Shown: positions 4,000 through 52,092 of the stretch, in pieces
Layout of the letters: each line of letters starts with the position of its first letter
Numbering within the stretch: the first letter of the stretch is position 1
NCBI GenBank assembly: GCA_965372365.1
Contig: CBDVCA010000001.1
Span: forward strand, 5,810 to 69,809
Length of the DNA: 64,000 nucleotides
DNA from: an uncultured bacterium
GTDB taxonomy: Bacteria > Planctomycetota > Phycisphaerae > SM23-33 > FEN-1343
Direction of reading: 5' to 3'
Position numbers and translations under genes: made by a program
Notes under the pieces: generated by a model
The model's input: only the letters and a program-made list of their open reading frames with translations
Databases searched by the model: none
Told to the model about the DNA's origin: nothing

Positions 4000-4103
4000 T
4001 GTCCTCCCCACGCACAGAAGCCATACGCTCGCGCGGACTATGCCCATGTGAGGTTCATCCGCGATTCGTGGGGAGTCCTTCCGATGAGCGCCCGCCGTTA
4101 CTA

Positions 4104-4264
4104 GTACTCTGTCACACCAAAACCTGCTAGGTCCGCGCCGTGCCGGATGGTCAGATGCAAGGAAGAAAGACGATGGCATATTCGAGGATATGCCGAGTTT
4201 TTCTGACGAAGCAGATGACCGTTCGCCACAAGCGGAGTTAGTAGGTTTTGGTGTGACAGAGTAC
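4104..4264 (+). mobile_element. MITE-a copy 1: 161-bp non-autonomous element with about 40-bp imperfect terminal inverted repeats (gtactctgtcacaccaaaacct...), flanked by TA (4102-4103 and 4265-4266)
   Basis: Seen in sequence: termini gtactctgtcacaccaaaacct / aggttttggtgtgacagagtac. Central core gatgcaaggaagaaagacgatggcatattcgaggatatgccgagtttttctgacgaagcagatgac is shared with the copy at 12562..12724. No ORF. Confidence 0.75.
4175..4202 (+). terminator. Terminator-like hairpin plus U-run inside MITE-a copy 1 (ggcatat-tcgagg-atatgcc gag ttttt)
   Basis: 7-bp stem and T5 run lying 176 nt downstream of the + strand kinase-like gene. The same motif is in copy 2 in the orientation of local transcription. 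The stem is AT-rich and weak. Confidence 0.3.
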
Positions 4265-4266
4265 TA

Positions 4267-4400
4267 GCCCCCCGCAGTGCGGGGGGTCGAGACGGGAGCG
4301 AACGGACAGAATGCGGATCGAGCTTTCGGTTTCCGCCGATCAGCGTTACATCCACAATAGGAATACCATCCGTCCCCATACCCCCTGCACTGCAGGGGGC
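4267..4400. mobile_element. Element Y: 134-bp TA-flanked element with 14-bp TIRs (gccccccgcagtgc / gcactgcagggggc), each terminus itself a GC hairpin; abuts MITE-a copy 1
   Basis: TA at 4265-4266 and 4401-4402. The outer flanks gccgttac (4094-4101) and gtaacggc (4403-4410) are reverse complements, implying a palindromic target gccgttacTAgtaacggc. Confidence 0.5.
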
Positions 4401-4511
4401 TAGTAACGGCAAGCTTCCGGCGGAGAGAACTCCCCGCTACTCCGTCATGGATCAGAAGAAACGCCGGCGACCCCCCCCAGCGGGGCGATCGCCGGCGGTG
4501 CGTGCGGTGTA

Positions 4512-6074: not shown

Positions 6075-6400
6075 ACTGGACCTCTCGAAATGCGAGACGC
6101 TGGGCGCGCCTCTGGGCAATTATGAATTCGCCGCATGGTTGTTCCGGACAGTCGCGGCGGCTGGCACAGTCGCATCAGAGAACCGGCGACAAGCCGACAG
6201 TAATGCCTGCATTCCGGGCAGGCGCAGGCTTGTCTTTGGCGAAACTACCGGGACGAGGTGAAACTCCTGGCTTCCAGATCACATATCATTCCAAGCTCCC
6301 CGCCGAGCGGGATGAGCCTATCTAGATAGCGACAGAATTGTCGTTCGACTTGAGCTGTACTCCGGCTCTGGAGCCATTCACGATTGAGATGCGGGAACCG

Positions 6401-6475
6401 AGCATGAGCGAGAACGAACGTGGCGCGGACGTAACAGCAGCCATAGCAACGCTATGGCGATACCGCAGCCGGCTT
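6401..6475 (+). repeat. Conserved hairpin module, copy A (GAGCGAGAACGAACGTGGCG...GACGTAACAGCAGCCATAGC-aac-GCTATGGCGATACC)
   Basis: Homologous to the copies at 11941..12030 and 12433..12505. Perfect 8-bp stem 6440..6458 with loop aac. Lies in the 480-bp MCP/pgpA intergenic region. Confidence 0.6.
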
Positions 6476-6557
6476 GGACCCATCGGTCAATCGCGCACCG
6501 CTCTAATAGAGATTTATTCCAACGGCAATGGCCCTACCCCCCATCCGGCGGCCCGCA

Positions 6558-7043
6558 CTAAACGACAAATCGCACGATCATCTGAGCGGCGATGTTGGCG
6601 TAGACGCCCGCGGCTAGATCGTCGCACAGTACACCCCATCCGGCGGGGAGTTTCTCCAACTGCCGCGCCGGCGTTGGTTTGAGGATATCAAATACGCGGA
6701 ACGCCACGAACGCCACACCCGCGGCTGTCAGGGCGCCGCCAACGCCGGCGGCCGGAAGAGCGATCAACGCCACCGCCTGTCCGGCCCATTCGTCGATCGT
6801 GACCTGGCCGGGATCTTTCTTGCCGAAGTGACGCTCAGCGAACGGCCCCAGGGCCACGCAGATGACGCTGCTGACCACCACCACCAAGACCATCGCGGCG
6901 TCAACCGCATACGAACGCTCGCCGTCGATCCGGCCGATCAGCAGATACAACGCGACCACCACCGCCGAGCCCCACGTGCCCGGTGCGATCGGCAGATACC
7001 CGGTCCCCAGGCCGGTCACCGCCAGCGTCTTGAGCCTATCCAC
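6558..7043 (-). CDS. pgpA: Phosphatidylglycerophosphatase A
   Basis: GTGYLPIAPGTWGS, TIDEWAGQ, FRVFDILKP...LPAGWGVLCDDLAAG motifs. Confidence 0.85.
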   Translation of the reverse strand: MDRLKTLAVTGLGTGYLPIAPGTWGSAVVVALYLLIGRIDGERSYAVDAAMVLVVVVSSVICVALGPFAERHFGKKDPGQVTIDEWAGQAVALIALPAAGVGGALTAAGVAFVAFRVFDILKPTPARQLEKLPAGWGVLCDDLAAGVYANIAAQMIVRFVV

Positions 7044-7695
7044 GGGTCGCCTCCACCAGCAACTTGCGAGCCCGACCCACGTAGGTGAGCCCGCTGAGAA
7101 TCGTGACGATGACGGTTCCCCACACCAGGGCGATCTTCAGAACCACCGCCCACGCCGCCTCCGGCAGCAGGGCGACCTGGAAGAGAACAACGCAGATCGC
7201 CGTACTCTGAACGGCCATCTTGATTTTACCCATCGACGTCGCCGGGAACGCCAGTCCCTGGCTCTCGCTAAAGCCGCGAATGCCCGAAACGATGAACTCC
7301 CGGGCGATCAGCACCACCACCATCCACGCCTGCACGGCGCTGGCCATACCGCCGTGGAGCCAGGGGGACATCGTCCGCTCCAGTTCGCTGGTGGCCTCGC
7401 CGCCGGGGAAGACGAAGTTGCTCCCCGAAAGCAGCGCGTAGGCGCCGCAGACGATGACCTTGTCGACGAACGGGTCGGCGATCCGCCCGAACGCGCTGGT
7501 TACGTTCCACTTGCGGGCCAGGTAGCCGTCGAGGATATCGGTAAGAGCCGCGATGATGAAGATCACGAACGCCGCCATCAGCAGCCCGACGTCGGGCTCT
7601 GGAACGATGTCGGCGACGGCCAGCAGCGAGAAGAAGACAATCGCCAGGACCAATCGGCCCAGCGTGATCTGGTTGGGCAATTTCGGATACACCAT
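7036..7695 (-). CDS. pgsA: CDP-diacylglycerol--glycerol-3-phosphate 3-phosphatidyltransferase
   Basis: CDP-alcohol phosphatidyltransferase motif DILDGYLARKWNVTSAFGRIADPFVDK. I chose Met MVYPKLPNQITLGR (7695) because GGTGGA lies 6 nt upstream; the track ORF extends to 7722. Overlaps pgpA by 8 nt. Confidence 0.85.
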   Translation of the reverse strand: MVYPKLPNQITLGRLVLAIVFFSLLAVADIVPEPDVGLLMAAFVIFIIAALTDILDGYLARKWNVTSAFGRIADPFVDKVIVCGAYALLSGSNFVFPGGEATSELERTMSPWLHGGMASAVQAWMVVVLIAREFIVSGIRGFSESQGLAFPATSMGKIKMAVQSTAICVVLFQVALLPEAAWAVVLKIALVWGTVIVTILSGLTYVGRARKLLVEATRG

Positions 7696-7725
7696 CGCTG
7701 TCCACCCATCAAGGGCCGCCAAGTC

Positions 7726-9096
7726 TTATCGGCGGCGGCGTTTGCGTCGCGAGGCCGCCTTCGAAGGCGTTACGATCAGGTCGTACTCGCTGTACTCGGC
7801 CACGGTCGCTCGCACAAAGGCTCCCGCCGGAGCCGGGTCGGTCAGGTAGCACACACTGTCGACGTCGGGCGCCTGTCCGGCGTGCCTGCCGACACAATAC
7901 CCGTTGGAATCGACGCCGTCGACCATTACCTCGATCGACTTTCCGATACGGGCGGCGTTGGCGGCCAGCGCGATCTCCTGCTGGGCGAGCATCAACTCCT
8001 CCACCCGCTTGGCGGCCACCTCCGGATCGACCGCCCCGTCCATCTTCGCGGCCGCCGTGCCGGGCTCGGGGGAGAAGGCGAACACCCCCATCGCGTCGAA
8101 GCGGGCCGCCTCCACAAACGCCAGCAACCGCCGATACTCGGCGTCGGTCTCGCCGGGGAACCCCACAATGAACGTCGTCCGAATCGTCATATCCTCAACG
8201 CGGCTGCGGAGCCGCTCGATGAGCCGCTCGGTTTCGGCCTCGCTCGTCCGGCGCCGCATTCGCTTCAGCACGCCGTCGGCCACATGCTGCAGCGGCACGT
8301 CGATGTACTTGACGACCTTCTCGCACTCGGCGATCGCGTCGATGATCTCGTCGGTCACCAGCGACGGATACGCGTACATCAGGCGGATCCACCGCACGCG
8401 ATCCAGCCCGTTGAGTTCGGCCAGCAGCCCGGCCAGGCCGGCGTCGTAGCCGATATCCCCGCCATAGCTGGTCGTATCCTGACCGATCAGATTCAATTCG
8501 ACCGCCCCGTCGGCGATCAACTCGGCCGCTTCGGCCATGATGCGGTCGATCGGCTTGGAGCGGAACGGGCCGCGAATAGCGGGGATGGTGCAGAAGCTGC
8601 ACCCTTGGCCGCAGCCCTCGCTGATACGCAGATACGCCGTATGCGCCGGCGTCAATCGCAGCCGCGACGTGTCGTCGCCGACCGCCGGACTGTCGGCGCT
8701 GCGCCGATACGCATCGACCGCCGTAACCTCCGTCGTCGCCGTCACCGCCTCGACCAGATCGGCGCGATTGTTCACCCCCACCACCGCGTCGACACCCGGC
8801 AAGGCCCGGCGTAACTCGTCGCCGTCCCGCTGGGCCATGCACCCGACGACGACCACCCGACGGACCGATCCGGCTTCCTTCATCGCCAGCGCTTCGGCGA
8901 TAACTTCGGTCGATTCGTCCCGCGCCGAGGCGAGAAACCCGCAGGTGTTCACGATAATCACGTTCGCTTGGTCCGCGTCGGCGCCCACGATGCAGCCGGC
9001 CTCGGCCAATAGGCCGAGCATCTTCTCGCTGTCGACGAGGTTCTTCGGACAGCCCAGCGAAATCAGGTTGACGATTGTCGGTTCTTCATTACTCAT
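7726..9096 (-). CDS. rimO: Ribosomal protein S12 methylthiotransferase (radical SAM MTTase plus TRAM domain)
   Basis: N-terminal ISLGCPKNLVDSE, radical-SAM CxxxCxxC (EGCGQGCSFCTIP), C-terminal TRAM-like region. Confidence 0.8.
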   Translation of the reverse strand: MSNEEPTIVNLISLGCPKNLVDSEKMLGLLAEAGCIVGADADQANVIIVNTCGFLASARDESTEVIAEALAMKEAGSVRRVVVVGCMAQRDGDELRRALPGVDAVVGVNNRADLVEAVTATTEVTAVDAYRRSADSPAVGDDTSRLRLTPAHTAYLRISEGCGQGCSFCTIPAIRGPFRSKPIDRIMAEAAELIADGAVELNLIGQDTTSYGGDIGYDAGLAGLLAELNGLDRVRWIRLMYAYPSLVTDEIIDAIAECEKVVKYIDVPLQHVADGVLKRMRRRTSEAETERLIERLRSRVEDMTIRTTFIVGFPGETDAEYRRLLAFVEAARFDAMGVFAFSPEPGTAAAKMDGAVDPEVAAKRVEELMLAQQEIALAANAARIGKSIEVMVDGVDSNGYCVGRHAGQAPDVDSVCYLTDPAPAGAFVRATVAEYSEYDLIVTPSKAASRRKRRRR

Positions 9097-9111
9097 AGAC
9101 CCGTTATTCTA

Positions 9112-9229
9112 CCAACTCGGCCCCGCCAAAGGAACCGGGCCGAGCCGACCGGATTTTCGCCTCGAGTTCCCACTCGGCCCCGCCAAAGGAACCGGGCCGA
9201 GCCGACCGGATTCTCCCCTTCGAGTTCCC
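9112..9229. repeat. Two tandem copies of a 58-59 bp unit, each with an 8-bp GC stem (ctcggccc...gggccgag) and 13-nt loop cgccaaaggaacc, in the divergent rimO/dus promoter region
   Basis: Units at about 9112..9171 and 9170..9229 are about 93% identical. Hairpins at 9117..9145 and 9173..9201. The minus ORF 9104..9487 translates the repeats (SARPGSFGGAE twice) and is not a gene. Confidence 0.7.
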
Positions 9230-9260
9230 CCCCCCTCCGCCGGCTGCTATACTATCGGCA

Positions 9261-10253
9261 ATGAGTGCTCCGATGAATGTCCAACCTCTCCGGATCGGCC
9301 CGATCGAATTGACCGCCCCGGCGGTGCTGGCCCCGCTGGCCGGGTATACCGATCTGTCGTACCGGCTCGTCTGCCGACGGCTGGGCGCCGAGTATTGCGC
9401 GACCGAGGTGACGCTGGACACGTCGATCAACCAAGGCGAAAAACTCCGCCGCAAGCTTATACAGATCCCCGACGAGGACCACCTCATCGCCGGTCAGATT
9501 ATGGGCCGCGAACCGGCGTCGGTGGCCGAGGCCGCCGGGCGCGTTGTGGCCATGGGCGCCGACGTGATCGATCTGAACTTCGCCTGCCCGGTCCGCAAGG
9601 CCCTTCGGCGCCGTCGCGGCGGGCACATGATGCGAGCGCCGCAAACCGCCATCGCCACGCTCAAAGCGGTCGCCGAGGAGGTCGATGTACCGCTGACGGT
9701 GAAACTTCGACGGAGCTTCGACGACGATGATACGACCCACGACGCGTTCTGGCGAATCGCCGAGGCGGCCTTCGACCTCGGATTCGCCGCCATCTGCGTC
9801 CACGGCCGCTCCGTCCGCGCCGGCTACGGCGGCCCGGCCGATTGGGCGTTCCTCGCGAGCGTCAAACGCCGCTTCGCCGACCGGGTCGTCATCGGATCCG
9901 GCGACCTCATGACCGCCGCCGACGGCGTCCGCATGCTGGTCGAAACCGGCGTCGACGGCGTCTCCTTCGCCCGCGGCGCCCTGGGCAACCCCTGGATCTT
10001 CGGCCAGTTCCGCCAACTCCTCGCCGGTCAACCGGCCGCGGCTCCGACCGTGGTCGAGCAGGCCCGGGTGCTCCGCGAGCATTACGCCATGTGCCTGGAG
10101 TTCTTCGGCCCGCGAAACGGCCCGGCCATGATGAACCGCTTCGGCATCCGCTACGCCAAGGTCCACCCCACCCCCCGTCCGGTCCGCACCGCCTTCATCC
10201 AGTCCGACTGCGGCAAGGACATCCCGAAAATCCTCGACACGTACTACGCGTAG
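9261..10253 (+). CDS. tRNA-dihydrouridine synthase (Dus family)
   Basis: LAPLAGYTDLSYR, GQIMGREP, DVIDLNFACPVRK motifs. TATACT lies 7 nt upstream of the ATG, which may indicate a leaderless start. Confidence 0.85.
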   Translation: MSAPMNVQPLRIGPIELTAPAVLAPLAGYTDLSYRLVCRRLGAEYCATEVTLDTSINQGEKLRRKLIQIPDEDHLIAGQIMGREPASVAEAAGRVVAMGADVIDLNFACPVRKALRRRRGGHMMRAPQTAIATLKAVAEEVDVPLTVKLRRSFDDDDTTHDAFWRIAEAAFDLGFAAICVHGRSVRAGYGGPADWAFLASVKRRFADRVVIGSGDLMTAADGVRMLVETGVDGVSFARGALGNPWIFGQFRQLLAGQPAAAPTVVEQARVLREHYAMCLEFFGPRNGPAMMNRFGIRYAKVHPTPRPVRTAFIQSDCGKDIPKILDTYYA

Positions 10254-10305
10254 GACTCTGTCCCATCGACAATGTGGAGTTGGCTGGCTTCCCGTTGAGG
10301 CGCCG

Positions 10306-11610
10306 TCATGGCCGCCGCGTCGGTCGACCGATAATCAGCCAGGCGTATTTGCCGCCGATGATGGACAGCAGGTTCGCTCCGGGGGGAACCAGGCGGATCA
10401 TCATCGCCACGATAGCGGCGACGACGCCGGCGATGAAGCCGCCGATGTGAGCCCAGTGAGCGGTGCCGGATTCCAACTTGGCGGCCACGTACAGCACGTC
10501 GAATGCAATATAGGCGCCCACGACGATGATGCCCGGCAACGAGAAGATCTTCTTGAACAGTCTGAACCCTGTGATGAGCCCCATCCGTAACCATACGACC
10601 ATATGGACTTTCTGGAGCGGGAACAGGATCAGGTACAACCCGCACATCCCCATGACGGCCCCGGAGGCGCCGAGCATGGGGATCGGCACGCCGCCGGAAA
10701 CCGAGGCCATGTGAGCCCACCCTGCGATCACCCCCAGCAACGGGTAGAGGATCAGCGTGGGAACATTGCCGATGACGCTGTTCACACGCGTACCGAACAC
10801 GATCAGGAACAGCATGTTGCCAGCCAAGTGCAGCAGCCCCCCGTGCAGGAATGCGTGGGTAATGAGCTGCAACGGCTGGAACTGACCGATCTCTCCCGAC
10901 AGTTCATAGGTCAGATCATCGACGGCCGCATCAAGCTCGGAACGATCGACAGTATCTGAGGTTCCGTCTGCGTACTCGACCTCCCCGACCGCCGGGTTTT
11001 CATCGAAGAACGCCTCGTCCACACCGGCGTCGATATAGGCCGCGACAGCGTATTCCCGGGCCGACATGGCGTCATTGTCCCAGAGCATCAAGTTCATTGC
11101 GGCCTTGCCGTCGCCGCCCATGTTGGCCGCGAAGAACCCCACGCTGGCCAAGACCGTAATCGCGAAGATCAGCCACGTAGCCACCGGCCGTTTGCCCCCG
11201 CCGGCCTCGGCGGCGATCGGATGCAGCCCTGTCGGGAACAACCAACTGAGCCAGCCGACAATGGTCTCGGCCCGGGTGTAGAGGTCGTCCAGATCGGGCT
11301 CGAATGATGTCATGACAGGCCGACCGCTGCTCGCCTTCACGCCGCAACGGACGCAGATCACAGCATTGGCCGCCAAGGTCTGATCGCAACTGGGGCATAT
11401 CGACCTGCCGCCGGAGGACCGGGAGACCTTGGCGGTGGGGATCGGAGTCGCCATGCGGGGATCGATCAACTCCTCGGCGAAATCGAGTTCAGCCTCCGGC
11501 GAGGGAATGGCCAGCGCCGCGCCGCACTTGGGGCACTTACCTTTCTTGCCGGCCTTGGAGTCGTCAACTTTGAAGTTGGCGCCGCATCCATTACACGCGA
11601 ATCGGATCAT
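10306..11610 (-). CDS. Rhomboid-family intramembrane serine protease with N-terminal zinc-ribbon domain
   Basis: Start MIRFACNGCGANFKVDDSKAGKKGKCPKCGA (MJ0042-type ribbon) with AAAGGG upstream. A second CxxC pair (CPSCDQ...CVRCG). Rhomboid GASGAVMG and AHIGGFIAG motifs. Confidence 0.8.
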   Translation of the reverse strand: MIRFACNGCGANFKVDDSKAGKKGKCPKCGAALAIPSPEAELDFAEELIDPRMATPIPTAKVSRSSGGRSICPSCDQTLAANAVICVRCGVKASSGRPVMTSFEPDLDDLYTRAETIVGWLSWLFPTGLHPIAAEAGGGKRPVATWLIFAITVLASVGFFAANMGGDGKAAMNLMLWDNDAMSAREYAVAAYIDAGVDEAFFDENPAVGEVEYADGTSDTVDRSELDAAVDDLTYELSGEIGQFQPLQLITHAFLHGGLLHLAGNMLFLIVFGTRVNSVIGNVPTLILYPLLGVIAGWAHMASVSGGVPIPMLGASGAVMGMCGLYLILFPLQKVHMVVWLRMGLITGFRLFKKIFSLPGIIVVGAYIAFDVLYVAAKLESGTAHWAHIGGFIAGVVAAIVAMMIRLVPPGANLLSIIGGKYAWLIIGRPTRRP

Positions 11611-11940
11611 CACCAGCCCTTTCGTGGTAGTTATATGCACAGGCCGCGATATGTCTGAGGCCCGGACCGGCGTAGGAGGCGAGCCCCCAAGCGATGCCCC
11701 AGTCAGAATGGAATCGGTCATCTGCCCGCGATGAAGACAATCTCACCCTCTCCGCAAGACGCCTGCCATGCATCGCCACACACCAGTGTACTCACCTCGC
11801 CCCCGCCGTCAACACCGCCGGGGGGACGGGCCTGCGCCGTCTCGATCCACGGACCGCTGTCGCGGCCCTGGTATTCTGTCCCTGGCATGAAGTCCAGCAT
11901 GAGATTATCTCCGCTTGGGCGCCGCGGGTTGCCCGAGCCA

Positions 11941-12030
11941 AGCGTGAGCGAGAACGAGCGTGGCGAGAACGAGCGTGGCGATGACGTTGAAGCAGCCATG
12001 GCAGTTCTGTGGCGATCGAAACGGACAATG
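11941..12030 (+). repeat. Conserved hairpin module, copy B (internal duplication of gagaacgagcgtggc; stem 11995..12013 kept by two G-U wobbles)
   Basis: gtgagcgagaacgagcgtggcg[agaacgagcgtggcg]atgacgttgaagcagccatggc-agtt-ctgtggcgatcgaaacggac. Lies in the roughly 500-bp rhomboid/nth intergenic region; no convincing CDS. Confidence 0.6.
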
Positions 12031-12401
12031 CCAGAAGGACTACCAGGCGCGCGATCCTCGCCATCGCATTCTTCATTGGCTCGGGGCCGCCGCGGTCGCG
12101 TCGGCGATGGAGTCACGACCGGTCCATCACCCCTCGCCCCCACGGGCACAGTTCCAACAGCCGACAATCGTCGCAACGCGGGCTCCTCGCCCGGCACACG
12201 GCTCGGCCGTGGGCGATCAGCAACAGGTGCATCGCGTACCGGTCCCGGGGGCGAATCAACGGGGTCAGCAAGTCGTGGGCCGCCTCGGCCGACGTTCCGG
12301 CAGGAAGAACCTCCAGGCGAATGGCGATGCGGAGAATGTGGGTGTCGACCGGAAAGACCGGCATACCGAAGCTGAACATCAACACGCAATAGGCGGTCTT
12401 A

Positions 12402-12559
12402 GAGCACTTTGCATAATAGATGTCGTGTTCAGGCGTAGGTGAGGACGAGGCTGGCAAGGACGTTGAAGCAGCCATAGCCTTTGCTATGGCGATGGAAACG
12501 GACGCCGCCAACCGATGCCGCAACCAGCATGAAGGCGACAGGTATTATGCAAAGTGCTC
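12402..12559. mobile_element. Element X: 158-bp TA-flanked element with perfect 17-bp TIRs (gagcactttgcataata / tattatgcaaagtgctc), carrying hairpin-module copy C
   Basis: TA at 12400-12401 and 12560-12561. Inserted in nth immediately next to MITE-a copy 2. Confidence 0.65.
12433..12505 (+). repeat. Conserved hairpin module, copy C (inside element X): gtaggtgaggacgaggctggcaaggacgttgaagcagccatagc-cttt-gctatggcgatggaaacggac
   Basis: Stem 12471..12490, perfect 8 bp with a 4-nt loop. A one-base loop-length difference from copy B shifts the reading frame while the nucleotide sequence stays conserved. Confidence 0.6.
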
Positions 12560-12561
12560 TA

Positions 12562-12724
12562 GTACCCTGTCCCAGCAATACTGTGGTGTTCTGACTTGCG
12601 GCGATGATGCGTCTGCTGCGTCAGAAAAGCTCGGCATATCAACCAATATGCCGTCACTTTTCTTCCTTACATCCACATCACCGGCGCGGCGTCATAACAC
12701 CACATTATCCCTGGGACAGAGTAC
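12562..12724 (-). mobile_element. MITE-a copy 2 (163 bp, inverted relative to copy 1), flanked by TA (12560-12561 and 12725-12726); inserted in nth
   Basis: Termini gtaccctgtcccag...ctgggacagagtac. Core (reverse complement) gatgtaaggaagaaaagtgacggcatattggttgatatgccgagcttttctgacgcagcag matches the copy 1 core. The TIR arms differ from copy 1 but stay mutually complementary. Confidence 0.75.
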
Positions 12725-13215
12725 TAGGGCCGACGCCCTTGAAACGGCATAGATACTCGAACGCCGCGGCGGGGGTCGCGTCGCCCAGAAAAGCCAAATC
12801 GATCGCTCCCCGCTCGGCGCGGATGTCGCGGAGGATCTTTCTGATTCGAGGCGCCTTCTGGCGTGACAAGCCGCTGACGCGAATGCATCGCTCGATGCGC
12901 CCGACCGGGACGTCGGCCGCGGCGTCCCAGGTGGACTCGGCGCCCGAGAACGATTCGACAAGCCGTCGGTATCCCGCTCGACTGTTCGCGCGGCTGGTCG
13001 ACTGCGACAAGATCGTCCCGATCAACACGTCGACCGGCGGACCGTGCGATTCCCACGAACGCCGACCGTACTGGTCGACCAAGCGGCAAAGGACATCGGC
13101 CAGAAGGCGACGGGATGTGAGGGCCGTGGGCATGGTGACGGTTCCGAGAATGCTTGCTCCGGCGAAGGGCGATCCAGGTGCCGACCGCCATCAAGCGCCG
13201 AAGACCGCTGCGCGT

Positions 13216-49481: not shown

Positions 49482-49640
49482 ACACGCCGCGCATCCCCGA
49501 GGGTACACCGCCCCTAGCGACCCTAGGGTGAACGGGGCATTATGCCTCAACGAAAGCGACTGTCAAATGAAAAATTATGCGCCCGACGCACAAAATGCCT
49601 CCAGGCAAGGGACCACGGGCCAAACACGCAGGGCCGCAAT

Positions 49641-49756
49641 CCGCCGACAAACGACTGAACGCCGCCGAAAAACAGCTGAACGCTACCGACAAACGACTGC
49701 ACGCTACCGACAAACGACTGCACGCTACCGGCAAACGACTGCACGCTACCGAAAGG
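49641..49756. repeat. About 5.5 tandem copies of a 21-bp unit (c[tc][ag]ccg[ag]caaacgactg[ac]acg) in the tRNA-Gly/tRNA-Thr(GGU) spacer
   Basis: Seen in sequence. Shares the core caaacgac with the 15-bp repeat at 49284..49328. Confidence 0.8.
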
Positions 49757-49795
49757 GGCCGCAAGTTGCCAAAGGGGCCGCGGATCGATCCGAAC

Positions 49796-51252: not shown

Positions 51253-52092
51253 TTAGCCCGGATATTTCACACAGCGTGGTGGTTCCCCTATATCGCGACG
51301 GCCTTACTGTTTGGTATAACAAGAGTTAGCAAGATCTCCACCCACGCAGAAAGGCCGTCAACGATGACAGAGCGTCACCAAAAGCCCCTGCTGTTTTCAA
51401 GTCTTCTTCGGAAGAAGATCGTGGCGGATTTCAACGGTGACGACATCACCACCGATGGGGGTTTGCCGCTGATCCGCGAGGTGGACCGGAGGATCGGCCT
51501 GATCGACGCGATCGATAGCGCTATCGACGACCCCCGTTGCCCGTGGCTCATCGAGCACGACCAGCGAACGATCCTGGCCCAGCGGATTTTCGCTATCAAC
51601 GCCGGATACGAAGACCTCAACGACCACCAGACGTTGCGGAACGATACGCTCATGCAGGCCATCACCGACCGGCGGCTCAAGGTCGGACAGACCGAGCACG
51701 ATCCTCTGTCGAACCCACCGACTCTGTGCCGATTGGCCGGCACGGAACTGGCTACGGCGCAGGCGACCACGATCCGTCTGAAACTGCTGAAGATCGGGGG
51801 CCGCATCGTGCGGTCGGTTCGCCGTATCGCGATCCACTTGGCCGGCGGCTATCCGTTGCAGGCCCTATTCCACACGGTCCTGCACAATCTCCAGGAACGG
51901 AGATTCACCGCCGGCGGGCGCGACCTGGGCTTGCCGGAACCCTCTACATAACCTCCGGACAATTCGATTCTGACAGCGGGGGAAAGGGGGTTGTTCGTGC
52001 CGAGCGGGCGGCTATGCAAGCAAACCCAACTCCATATGCCCAAATGACCTCGCGACTCCCATCGCCAACGCTGTGTGAAATATCCGGGCTAA
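51253..52092 (+). mobile_element. Internally deleted IS1380-family insertion sequence (about 840 bp) with 25-bp perfect terminal inverted repeats ttagcccggatatttcacacagcgt
   Basis: IRL 51253..51277; IRR 52068..52092 is its exact reverse complement. It carries a 195-aa transposase remnant. No target-site duplication is evident. Confidence 0.7.
51364..51951 (+). pseudogene. IS1380-family DDE transposase remnant: N-terminal about 150 aa fused to the C-terminal about 45 aa, with the catalytic core deleted
   Basis: N-terminal family pattern FNGDDITTDGGLPLIREVDRRIGL…INAGYEDLNDHQTLRNDTLMQ…LSNPPTLCRLAG. C-terminal pattern KIGGRIVRSVRRIAIHLAGGYPLQALFHTVL. Full-length family members are about 430-470 aa. 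A possible internal promoter ttactg-N-tataac and GAAAGG SD lie upstream. Confidence 0.65.

Follow-up and report, generated by a model that had tools for sequence, protein, structure and literature searches.

A hairpin module repeated in a Planctomycetota contig is probably the apex of a miniature inverted-repeat transposable element that inserts at TA

We analysed a stretch of 64,000 nucleotides (hereafter the window) of contig CBDVCA010000001.1 from an uncultured bacterium of the Phycisphaerae (Planctomycetota), in which a module of about 46 nt with an 8-bp apical hairpin is present three times (copies A, B and C), every copy on the + strand. We consider it highly probable (about 0.88) that this module is the apex of a miniature inverted-repeat transposable element (MITE) of about 157 bp, a non-autonomous DNA transposon that inserts at the dinucleotide TA. 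Copy C lies within an intact element, named X, and the X family is a previously undescribed MITE family, a known kind of selfish repeat, found in Planctomycetota; no description of this element in Planctomycetes turned up in the literature. Bacterial MITEs are defined as short elements with inverted ends and a terminal TA that duplicate their target and can form long stem-loops (PMC2229807; PMC3049150). The members of the X family are 157-158 bp long and non-coding, carry terminal inverted repeats, are flanked by a TA duplication, occur as dispersed copies and form a stem-loop over their whole length. An earlier note on this DNA had read the module as a structured RNA. Its view that the repeat is non-coding, conserved at the level of structure and folded from the + strand stands, but its description of the module as cargo of X, its proof of an RNA from G-U wobbles and its proposal of a small RNA or regulatory hairpin do not.

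Element X matched the hidden Markov model (HMM) of the family over model positions 1-157 (nhmmer, E 3e-41). Its terminal inverted repeats are perfect over 17 nt and imperfect over about 35 nt, and the element folds as a single hairpin, with -81.4 kcal/mol (z -8.9) for the + strand and -74.3 kcal/mol (z -8.3) for the - strand. X lies in tandem with an unrelated element, Y, inside the endonuclease III (nth) gene. When we removed positions 12402-12726 (X, TA, Y and TA) in silico, an uninterrupted open reading frame (ORF) of 229 amino acids for endonuclease III was obtained with one TA left, and the restored frame reads via FKGVGPKTAYCVLMF up to the C-terminal cysteine cluster. Since excision restores the nth ORF, X and Y are insertions, each with a 2-bp TA duplication, where the empty site is a reconstruction in silico and not a natural empty allele. 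The nth gene is intact apart from the tandem insertion of X and Y inside its GVGPKTA motif, which suggests that its inactivation is recent. Copy C is an intact element recently inserted in this gene.

A pattern scan of metagenomes gave 30 matches, 17 of which were true relatives, mostly on SDBT01 and SDBV01 contigs from deep-sea sediment of Loki's Castle. All 17 align over the whole of X, while their flanking genes differ. Because these relatives align with X end to end, beyond the module, over all 157 nt including the terminal inverted repeats and the TA flanks, and because the module is the exact centre of X, the module is the core of the element and not its cargo. The HMM of the element found 14 full-length metagenome copies at E values of 1e-45 to 1e-52, and nhmmer searches of the fetched contigs added four further divergent copies. 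The family is thus dispersed, with the three copies in the window and about 15 independent metagenome sites with different neighbouring genes. Its consensus (GAGCATTTTAAGCTTGAGATGTCG...CGACAGATTAAGCTTAAAGTGCTC) is 157 nt long, and the flanks are unrelated, with TA mostly on either side. Of the 14 independent full-length copies, 13 have TA on at least one flank, including 7 that have it on both; the remaining flanks were AA, TT, CA and TG. The terminal inverted repeats begin with GAGC (element ends GAGCAYTTTAAGCTTGAGATGTCG, window variant GAGCACTTTGCATAATAG) and are conserved among the copies, and the left and right ends change together between subfamilies. The composition of the consensus is G48 C33 A46 T30, corresponding to about 52% G+C (about 50-54% in the family), compared with 62% in the window and 51-55% in the sediment contigs. 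An AT-rich composition, which is frequent in MITEs, is therefore not seen in the X family, although AT-richness is not obligatory for MITEs and exceptions have been listed (PMC2229807).

The family was not recovered from other collections. In the genome-contig collection, from which the source species is absent, the module pattern gave only two chance matches, in metagenome-assembled genomes of Lysinibacter and Olegusella. Viral contigs contained no match to the module pattern or to the terminal-repeat pattern, and no blastn match to the element consensus was found in plasmids.

Within the window, a covariance model of the 46-nt module was scanned over the entire sequence with filters off. The model recovered copy C with 73.5 bits (E 2e-17), copy B with 54 bits (E 4e-12) and copy A with 44 bits (E 2e-9), and no fourth copy; the lower-ranked matches were the palindromic apex on the opposite strand, followed by noise. 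These are the same three + strand sites that the earlier note had located. The 20-mer GACGTTGAAGCAGCCATAGC, allowing up to three mismatches, matched the window only at 6428, 11983 and 12459, against a chance expectation of 0.00. The 5' block GAGCGAGAACGARCGTGGCG matched at 6406, 11946 and 11961 (chance expectation 0.04), the last of these being the duplicated unit of B. These blocks had been described as common to all copies, but the 5' block is well preserved only in A and B, with C having GTGAGGACGAGGCTGGCA at that place, and the 3' block GAAACGGAC occurs in B and C but not in A. As had been noted, the 8-bp stem GCCATAGC/GCTATGGC pairs without a mismatch in A and C, whose loops are AAC and CTTT, respectively. 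In B, the 15-nt tandem duplication (11947-11976) and the two wobble-forming transitions are also as reported, but a position that had been taken as part of the loop carries a transversion by which the closing pair is lost.

Copies A and B are older degenerate X-like elements of related subfamilies, located in intergenic DNA and retaining remnants of their own inverted ends (Table 1). Copy A aligns with the family over the entire element, with about 20 nt of the right arm deleted. Its segment 6372-6461 matched model positions 2-91 (nhmmer, E 1e-10), and since this match begins at model position 2, the left end of A is homologous to the left inverted repeat. Moreover, the two ends of A have the derived bases CGATTGA in common, which the main family does not have, indicating that A belongs to a different subfamily and did not arise by random erosion of an X. 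In copy B, segment 11962-12036 matched model positions 37-111 (nhmmer, E 1e-13), and its X-like ends lie inside a 20-nt inverted repeat (11922-11941 and 12076-12095). The folds of both copies are largely decayed, with z values of about -1.5 to -2.5: the residual fold of A is weak (z -2.2), and the minimum-energy fold of B (z -1.5) does not contain the hairpin.

Table 1. Positions of the X-type copies, the interrupted gene and the adjoining element in the window.
Feature	Position	Strand	Description
Element X	12402..12559	+	Intact 158-bp MITE copy; holds copy C
Copy C module	12458-12503	+	Exact centre of X; apical hairpin 12471-12490
Left TA target duplicate of X	12400..12401	.	From the sequence; one TA remains after in-silico excision
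TA common to X and Y	12560..12561	.	Right duplicate of X and left duplicate of Y
Endonuclease III (nth) gene	12113..13133	-	Split by X and Y between the GVGP and KTA codons; two ORF halves on either side
Element Y	12562..12724	.	MITE family unrelated to X; inverted ends GTACYCTGTCCCAG; in tandem with X at the same TA
Copy A	6371..6505	+	Degenerate 135-bp member of a related subfamily; ends GAGCCATTCACGATTGA... and ...TCAATCGCGCACCGCTC, then TA
Copy A module	6427-6470	+	Covariance model; apical hairpin 6440-6458
Copy B	11922..12095	+	Degenerate, outer limits uncertain; X-like ends GAGCCAAG... and ...CATTGGCTC at 11935 and 12081
Copy B module	11982-12026	+	Covariance model and repeats; hairpin 11995-12013; tandem duplication 11947-11976

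The fold of the element is conserved through compensatory changes. The consensus of the element alignment has 45 pairs, 27 of which show such changes. For the module, we tested 18 distinct sequences against a fixed structure comprising the 8-bp apical stem, a 4-bp helix 2 and one outer pair. In this test 96.6% of the cells were paired and 10 of the 13 pairs had changed on both sides, and the covariation score was reached by none of 500 shuffles, with slid versions of the structure not coming close. Conservation is thus at the level of nucleotides and structure, as had been proposed. A large part of the core was prescribed by the pattern used for the metagenome search. High conservation of the core in copies found with this pattern is thus in part an ascertainment effect, and the divergent copies found only by the HMM are the informative ones in this respect. 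According to the subfamily, the apical stem reads GCCATAGC/GCTATGGC, GGCATAGC/GCTATGTC, AACA(A)ATGC/GCATTGTT or GATGATGC/GCATCATT, and helix 2 reads CGTT/AACG, CGTC/GACG, AGGT/ACCT, AGGC/GCCT or CGGC/GCCG. Conservation is also seen in the internal loop GAAGCA/GATGGA and in the GAT immediately 3' of the stem, which are not symmetric.

These data bear on two further explanations of the module. First, the 8-bp palindrome might be a double-stranded DNA site for a dimeric protein, as the half-sites in A and C form a perfect palindrome. However, the spacing of the half-sites varies from 3 to 5 nt, wobble variants are strand-biased, and in other subfamilies the half-site sequence is swapped outright. 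The replacement of the stem with its pairing kept, together with the asymmetric conserved loop, argues against a palindrome bound as a duplex and for a single-strand fold, and we regard such a protein site as very improbable. Second, the shared sequence could be what is left of a coding start (peptide MSENERG.DV.AAIA.LWR), such as that of a transposase or a small protein. The ATG at the start of A, the GTG at the start of B, the in-frame 15-nt duplication of B and one synonymous stem change in B would agree with this, but the loop is 3, 4 or 5 nt long among about 20 copies, so that the reading frame is not kept and is lost downstream of the hairpin, where the translations are arginine-rich nonsense overlapping real genes on the opposite strand. 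Furthermore, the divergent subfamilies alter the stem codons by compensatory pairs and not by synonymous changes. A coding origin is therefore excluded by the loop lengths for practical purposes, and we give it almost no credence.

The two strands of the element differ in their folding. The + strand folds better in 16 of 16 full-length copies, by 7-26 kcal/mol, which lends some support to the strand preference claimed before, and the consensus fold of the alignment has -51.7 kcal/mol on the + strand versus -32.5 kcal/mol on the other strand. Over the entire element, transition-type mismatches are roughly balanced and show no clear strand bias. Unpaired positions, on the other hand, are mostly purine opposite purine on the + strand, with ratios to pyrimidine opposite pyrimidine of 14:1 in the consensus, 16:1 in X, and 13:2 and 12:4 in the divergent subfamilies; the energy gap between the strands thus results mainly from these mismatches and not from those of the transition type. 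In the central module, the non-Watson-Crick cells comprise about nine G.U events versus one C.A. The Y-type MITE has a similar mismatch bias, with 10 pyrimidine.pyrimidine versus 2 purine.purine positions in one copy, and 8 purine.purine versus 1 pyrimidine.pyrimidine in the oppositely oriented copy. In both of these unrelated families, in the window as well as in contigs L004-L031, the non-pairing arm positions are nearly all purine opposite purine on one strand. Judging from these alignments and folds, a single-strand fold seems to be under selection, either as RNA or as single-stranded DNA, and the strand bias may be in part inherited, as the copies are related.

When the fold is considered as single-stranded DNA, a strand of the element would snap back during replication or transposition and pair the ends as a duplex for the transposase, with the apex hairpin and its flanking loop being part of the substrate. 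The compensatory pairing along the entire element, and not only in the terminal repeats, would agree with such a role, and the asymmetry of wobbles and mismatches fits the G.T and purine mismatches of DNA hairpins; the occurrence of the same one-strand purine bias in the unrelated Y-type MITE also agrees with it. However, transposition of IS630/Tc1-mariner elements uses double-stranded ends with no hairpin intermediate (PMC2170065), and we hold this explanation to be possible but doubtful.

Alternatively, the module or the entire foldback could function as a + strand RNA (a small-RNA gene, or a hairpin involved in regulation or processing) that is merely spread by the mobile element. The compensatory changes in the apical stem and helix 2, the preponderance of G.U among the non-Watson-Crick cells of the module, the better folding of the + strand in all full-length copies and the purine.purine mismatches all point in this direction, and there is a precedent in other bacterial MITEs, which act as RNA hairpins if they are co-transcribed (PMC2229807; PMC3049150). 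G-U wobbles had been taken in the earlier note as proof of an RNA, but G.T is also tolerated in single-stranded DNA hairpins, and the two wobble events of B occur in a decayed copy whose minimum-energy fold omits the hairpin. In addition, the asymmetry is possibly inherited among related copies, and the transition-type mismatches of the whole element are not clearly biased. When Rfam 15 was searched, only tRNAs reached the gathering score in the window, and nothing was found within 6200-12800 even at E values up to 1. Consensus scans, which do not cover the promoters of this phylum, detected no promoter-like or terminator-like site on the modules. The three copies in the window are antisense to the surrounding minus-strand genes, so that read-through would carry the weaker strand.

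Comparison with close relatives is also informative on this point. The closest contigs, L033 and L034, encode a DusB 98% identical to that of the window and share 96.5-97.8% identity with it over pgpA-pgsA-rimO-dus and a glycosyltransferase gene. In these contigs the MCP-pgpA spacer, which is the site of A in the window, consists of unrelated sequence with no element copy. The 2.95-kb segment 10266-13215, which comprises a rhomboid-family gene, B and the nth gene with X and Y, is absent from both contigs and 22 nt are found instead (L033 5983-6005). The left junction of this segment falls inside a remnant of a Y-type end, and loss of the segment through a transposase-linked adjacent deletion is possible. 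The more distant relatives L035-L037 have other neighbouring genes, and no element copy was found in L033, L034 or L035-L037. Conservation at orthologous positions, which is expected of a small-RNA gene or a cis-regulatory hairpin, is thus not seen in L033 and L034, and since A and B are missing from the close relatives, they are not conserved regulatory sites. Taken together with the Rfam and promoter results, a dispersed small-RNA gene or regulatory hairpin appears quite unlikely.

Insertions of the MITE are frequently found at stop codons. At 6-7 of about 11 independent sites in the sediment metagenome, the element lies directly against a gene's stop codon, and the TAG at these sites consists of the duplicated TA and the first G of the inverted repeat. 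As G is the first base at each end of the element, TAG is rebuilt on either strand whenever the TA of a TAA or TAG stop codon is the target. These contacts were observed on contigs L007, L013, L016, L017, L026, L030 and L031, and six of the genes have clear Pfam domains (TPR, metallo-beta-lactamase fold, PEGA, PilZ, GNAT and NifU). The orientation of the element at the stop codons is four sense and three antisense, showing no bias, which is a further point against a functional + strand RNA. In the window, the stop codon of dus (10251-10253) likewise consists of TA and the G of a Y-type end remnant. One could suppose that the + strand fold is selected as a single-stranded nucleic acid, comprising the covarying apical stem, helix 2, the purine-rich asymmetric loop GAAGCA/GATGGA and the purine-only arm mismatches, and that the element acts as a mobile module of structured RNA with preferential delivery to stop codons, at which it would rebuild TAG and give the gene a hairpin in its 3' untranslated region. 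We consider both parts of this proposal, the selected fold so composed and its delivery onto stop codons, unlikely. Nevertheless, the strand-asymmetric conservation of the fold through compensatory changes and the stop-codon hits leave a role at the level of RNA or of single-stranded DNA open with a modest probability.

Returning to the interpretation of X as a non-autonomous transposon, a DDE transposase supplied in trans would bind both inverted ends and excise the element, which would then integrate at a TA dinucleotide with duplication of the TA. As the halves of the element are complementary along almost its entire length, a single strand folds into one long hairpin, the tip of which is the 8-bp stem, and the fold would matter to the element itself, either as single-stranded DNA in mobilisation or as RNA on read-through. 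From the TA duplication alone, we infer that the mobilising enzyme is IS630/Tc1-mariner-like. In vitro, the IS630/Tc1-mariner transposase of ISY100 directs near-exclusive insertion at TA with TA duplication, and occasionally at AA or TT (PMC2170065). The occasional AA and TT flanks of the X family agree with this behaviour. Elements of the IS427 group of the IS5 family also produce 2-bp duplications and have ends starting with GAG, and an IS5-family enzyme of this group is another candidate for the mobiliser.

Several observations weigh against the MITE interpretation. First, neither the window nor the 37 fetched contigs yielded a transposase or an autonomous element with matching ends when we searched for fuzzy X-type ends at the spacing of insertion sequences and for a DDE_3 motif in six frames. 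Second, neither A (TG and TA) nor B (none) has clean TA flanks, and their outer limits are uncertain. Third, the core of A and B is clearly better preserved than their arms, a difference that is expected if they descend from subfamilies with different arms but not if dead copies simply decayed neutrally. Finally, cut-and-paste transposition of double-stranded DNA calls neither for compensatory evolution over the whole length nor for the strand asymmetry, and leaves both unexplained.

We then compared the X family with known repeats. The closest functional analogues, together with the Correia elements, are RUP of pneumococcus and Nezha of cyanobacteria, MITEs that are thought to be mobilised by IS630-family transposases and are linked to IS630-Spn1 and ISNpu3-like elements (PMC2229807; PMC3049150). 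RUP, Nezha and the X family are alike in being about 107-160 bp long and non-coding, in having terminal inverted repeats, a TA duplication and a tight stem-loop over the whole length, and in the dispersal of their copies in intergenic DNA and occasionally inside genes. They differ in that RUP and Nezha have no sequence similarity to the X family, whose host belongs to the phylum Planctomycetota, and are tied to cognate insertion sequences, whereas none with matching ends was found for X in the window or the fetched contigs; the X family is also not AT-rich (about 50-54% G+C) when set against them. The Correia/NEMIS elements of Neisseria resemble X in their length of about 100-155 bp, inverted ends, terminal TA and hairpin fold, and the Correia hairpin matters at the RNA level if it is co-transcribed, being cleaved by RNase III (PMC2229807). 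They have no sequence relationship to X, however, with unrelated ends, and the centre of Correia contains an IHF site, while no WATCAA motif was seen by eye in the X consensus.

The module had also been proposed to be a REP-like hairpin. REP/BIME sequences, which are mobilised by RAYT tyrosine transposases, are short GC-rich hairpins dispersed in intergenic DNA and in this respect resemble the 19-nt apex of X taken alone. REPs are 20-40 bp long with a GTAG or CGTC head, and they do not duplicate their target (PMC3733652). The apex was never found apart from the rest of the element in the window or the fetched contigs, and the unit is 157 bp with inverted ends starting with GAGC, a TA duplication and no GTAG or CGTC head, which rules out a REP/BIME identity. 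Stowaway-type MITEs of eukaryotes, which derive from Tc1/mariner elements, share with the X family the TA duplication, the foldback over the whole length and the presence of subfamilies with different interiors, traits described in part in PMC2229807. They belong to another domain of life, and there is no evidence of common descent with the X family.

The assignment turns an apparent novel structured RNA into a repeat family that can be annotated. In annotation, the MITE explains the split endonuclease III gene; small ORFs running through the elements should not be called, nor should A and B be treated as regulatory sites. The family can also serve as a marker of recent genome change, as it occurs both in a Planctomycetota genome of 62% G+C and in deep-sea sediment contigs of 51-55% G+C, and close relatives differ in the filling of sites. 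For the study of mobile DNA, the stop-codon insertions that regenerate TAG are of interest, and the pairing of the whole element with a purine bias on one strand offers a clean computational case for asking why MITEs retain their foldback.

Other foldback elements and repeats were observed in the window. Element Y was delimited by listing of inverted repeats, by pattern search and by the excision test described above. Its family has two full copies in the window, in opposite orientation (12562-12724 and 4103-4265) and with TA duplication, and solo-end remnants are located at 10253-10281 and about 11871. At the apex of Y lies a hairpin (12632-12653) that resembles a bidirectional terminator and has T runs on each strand. 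The sediment contigs L016, L031 and L011 likewise have Y-type ends beside X copies. We had considered that Y-type ends precede A and B (GTAC... strings near 6352 and 11871), but this candidate was dropped, the string at 6352 being native sequence common to L033. A third foldback element (4268-4401), with ends GCCCCCCGCAGTGCGGGGGG, is joined to the Y copy via a common TA. As X and Y are joined in the same way, tandem insertion of a MITE at a TA beside the end of an existing element has occurred twice in the window.

An 840-bp element at 51253-52092, unrelated to X and Y, has perfect 25-nt inverted ends (TTAGCCCGGATATTTCACACAGCGT) and encloses an apparently internally deleted transposase gene. 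The divergent spacer between rimO and dus (9112-9219) contains two tandem units of 57 nt with 94% identity over 51 aligned nt, and in each unit a T-rich stretch comes after a small GC hairpin on the minus strand. In the tuf-tRNA cluster, six or seven tandem repeats of 21 nt (CCGACAAACGACTGMACGCTA) are located between tRNA genes at 49623-49773.

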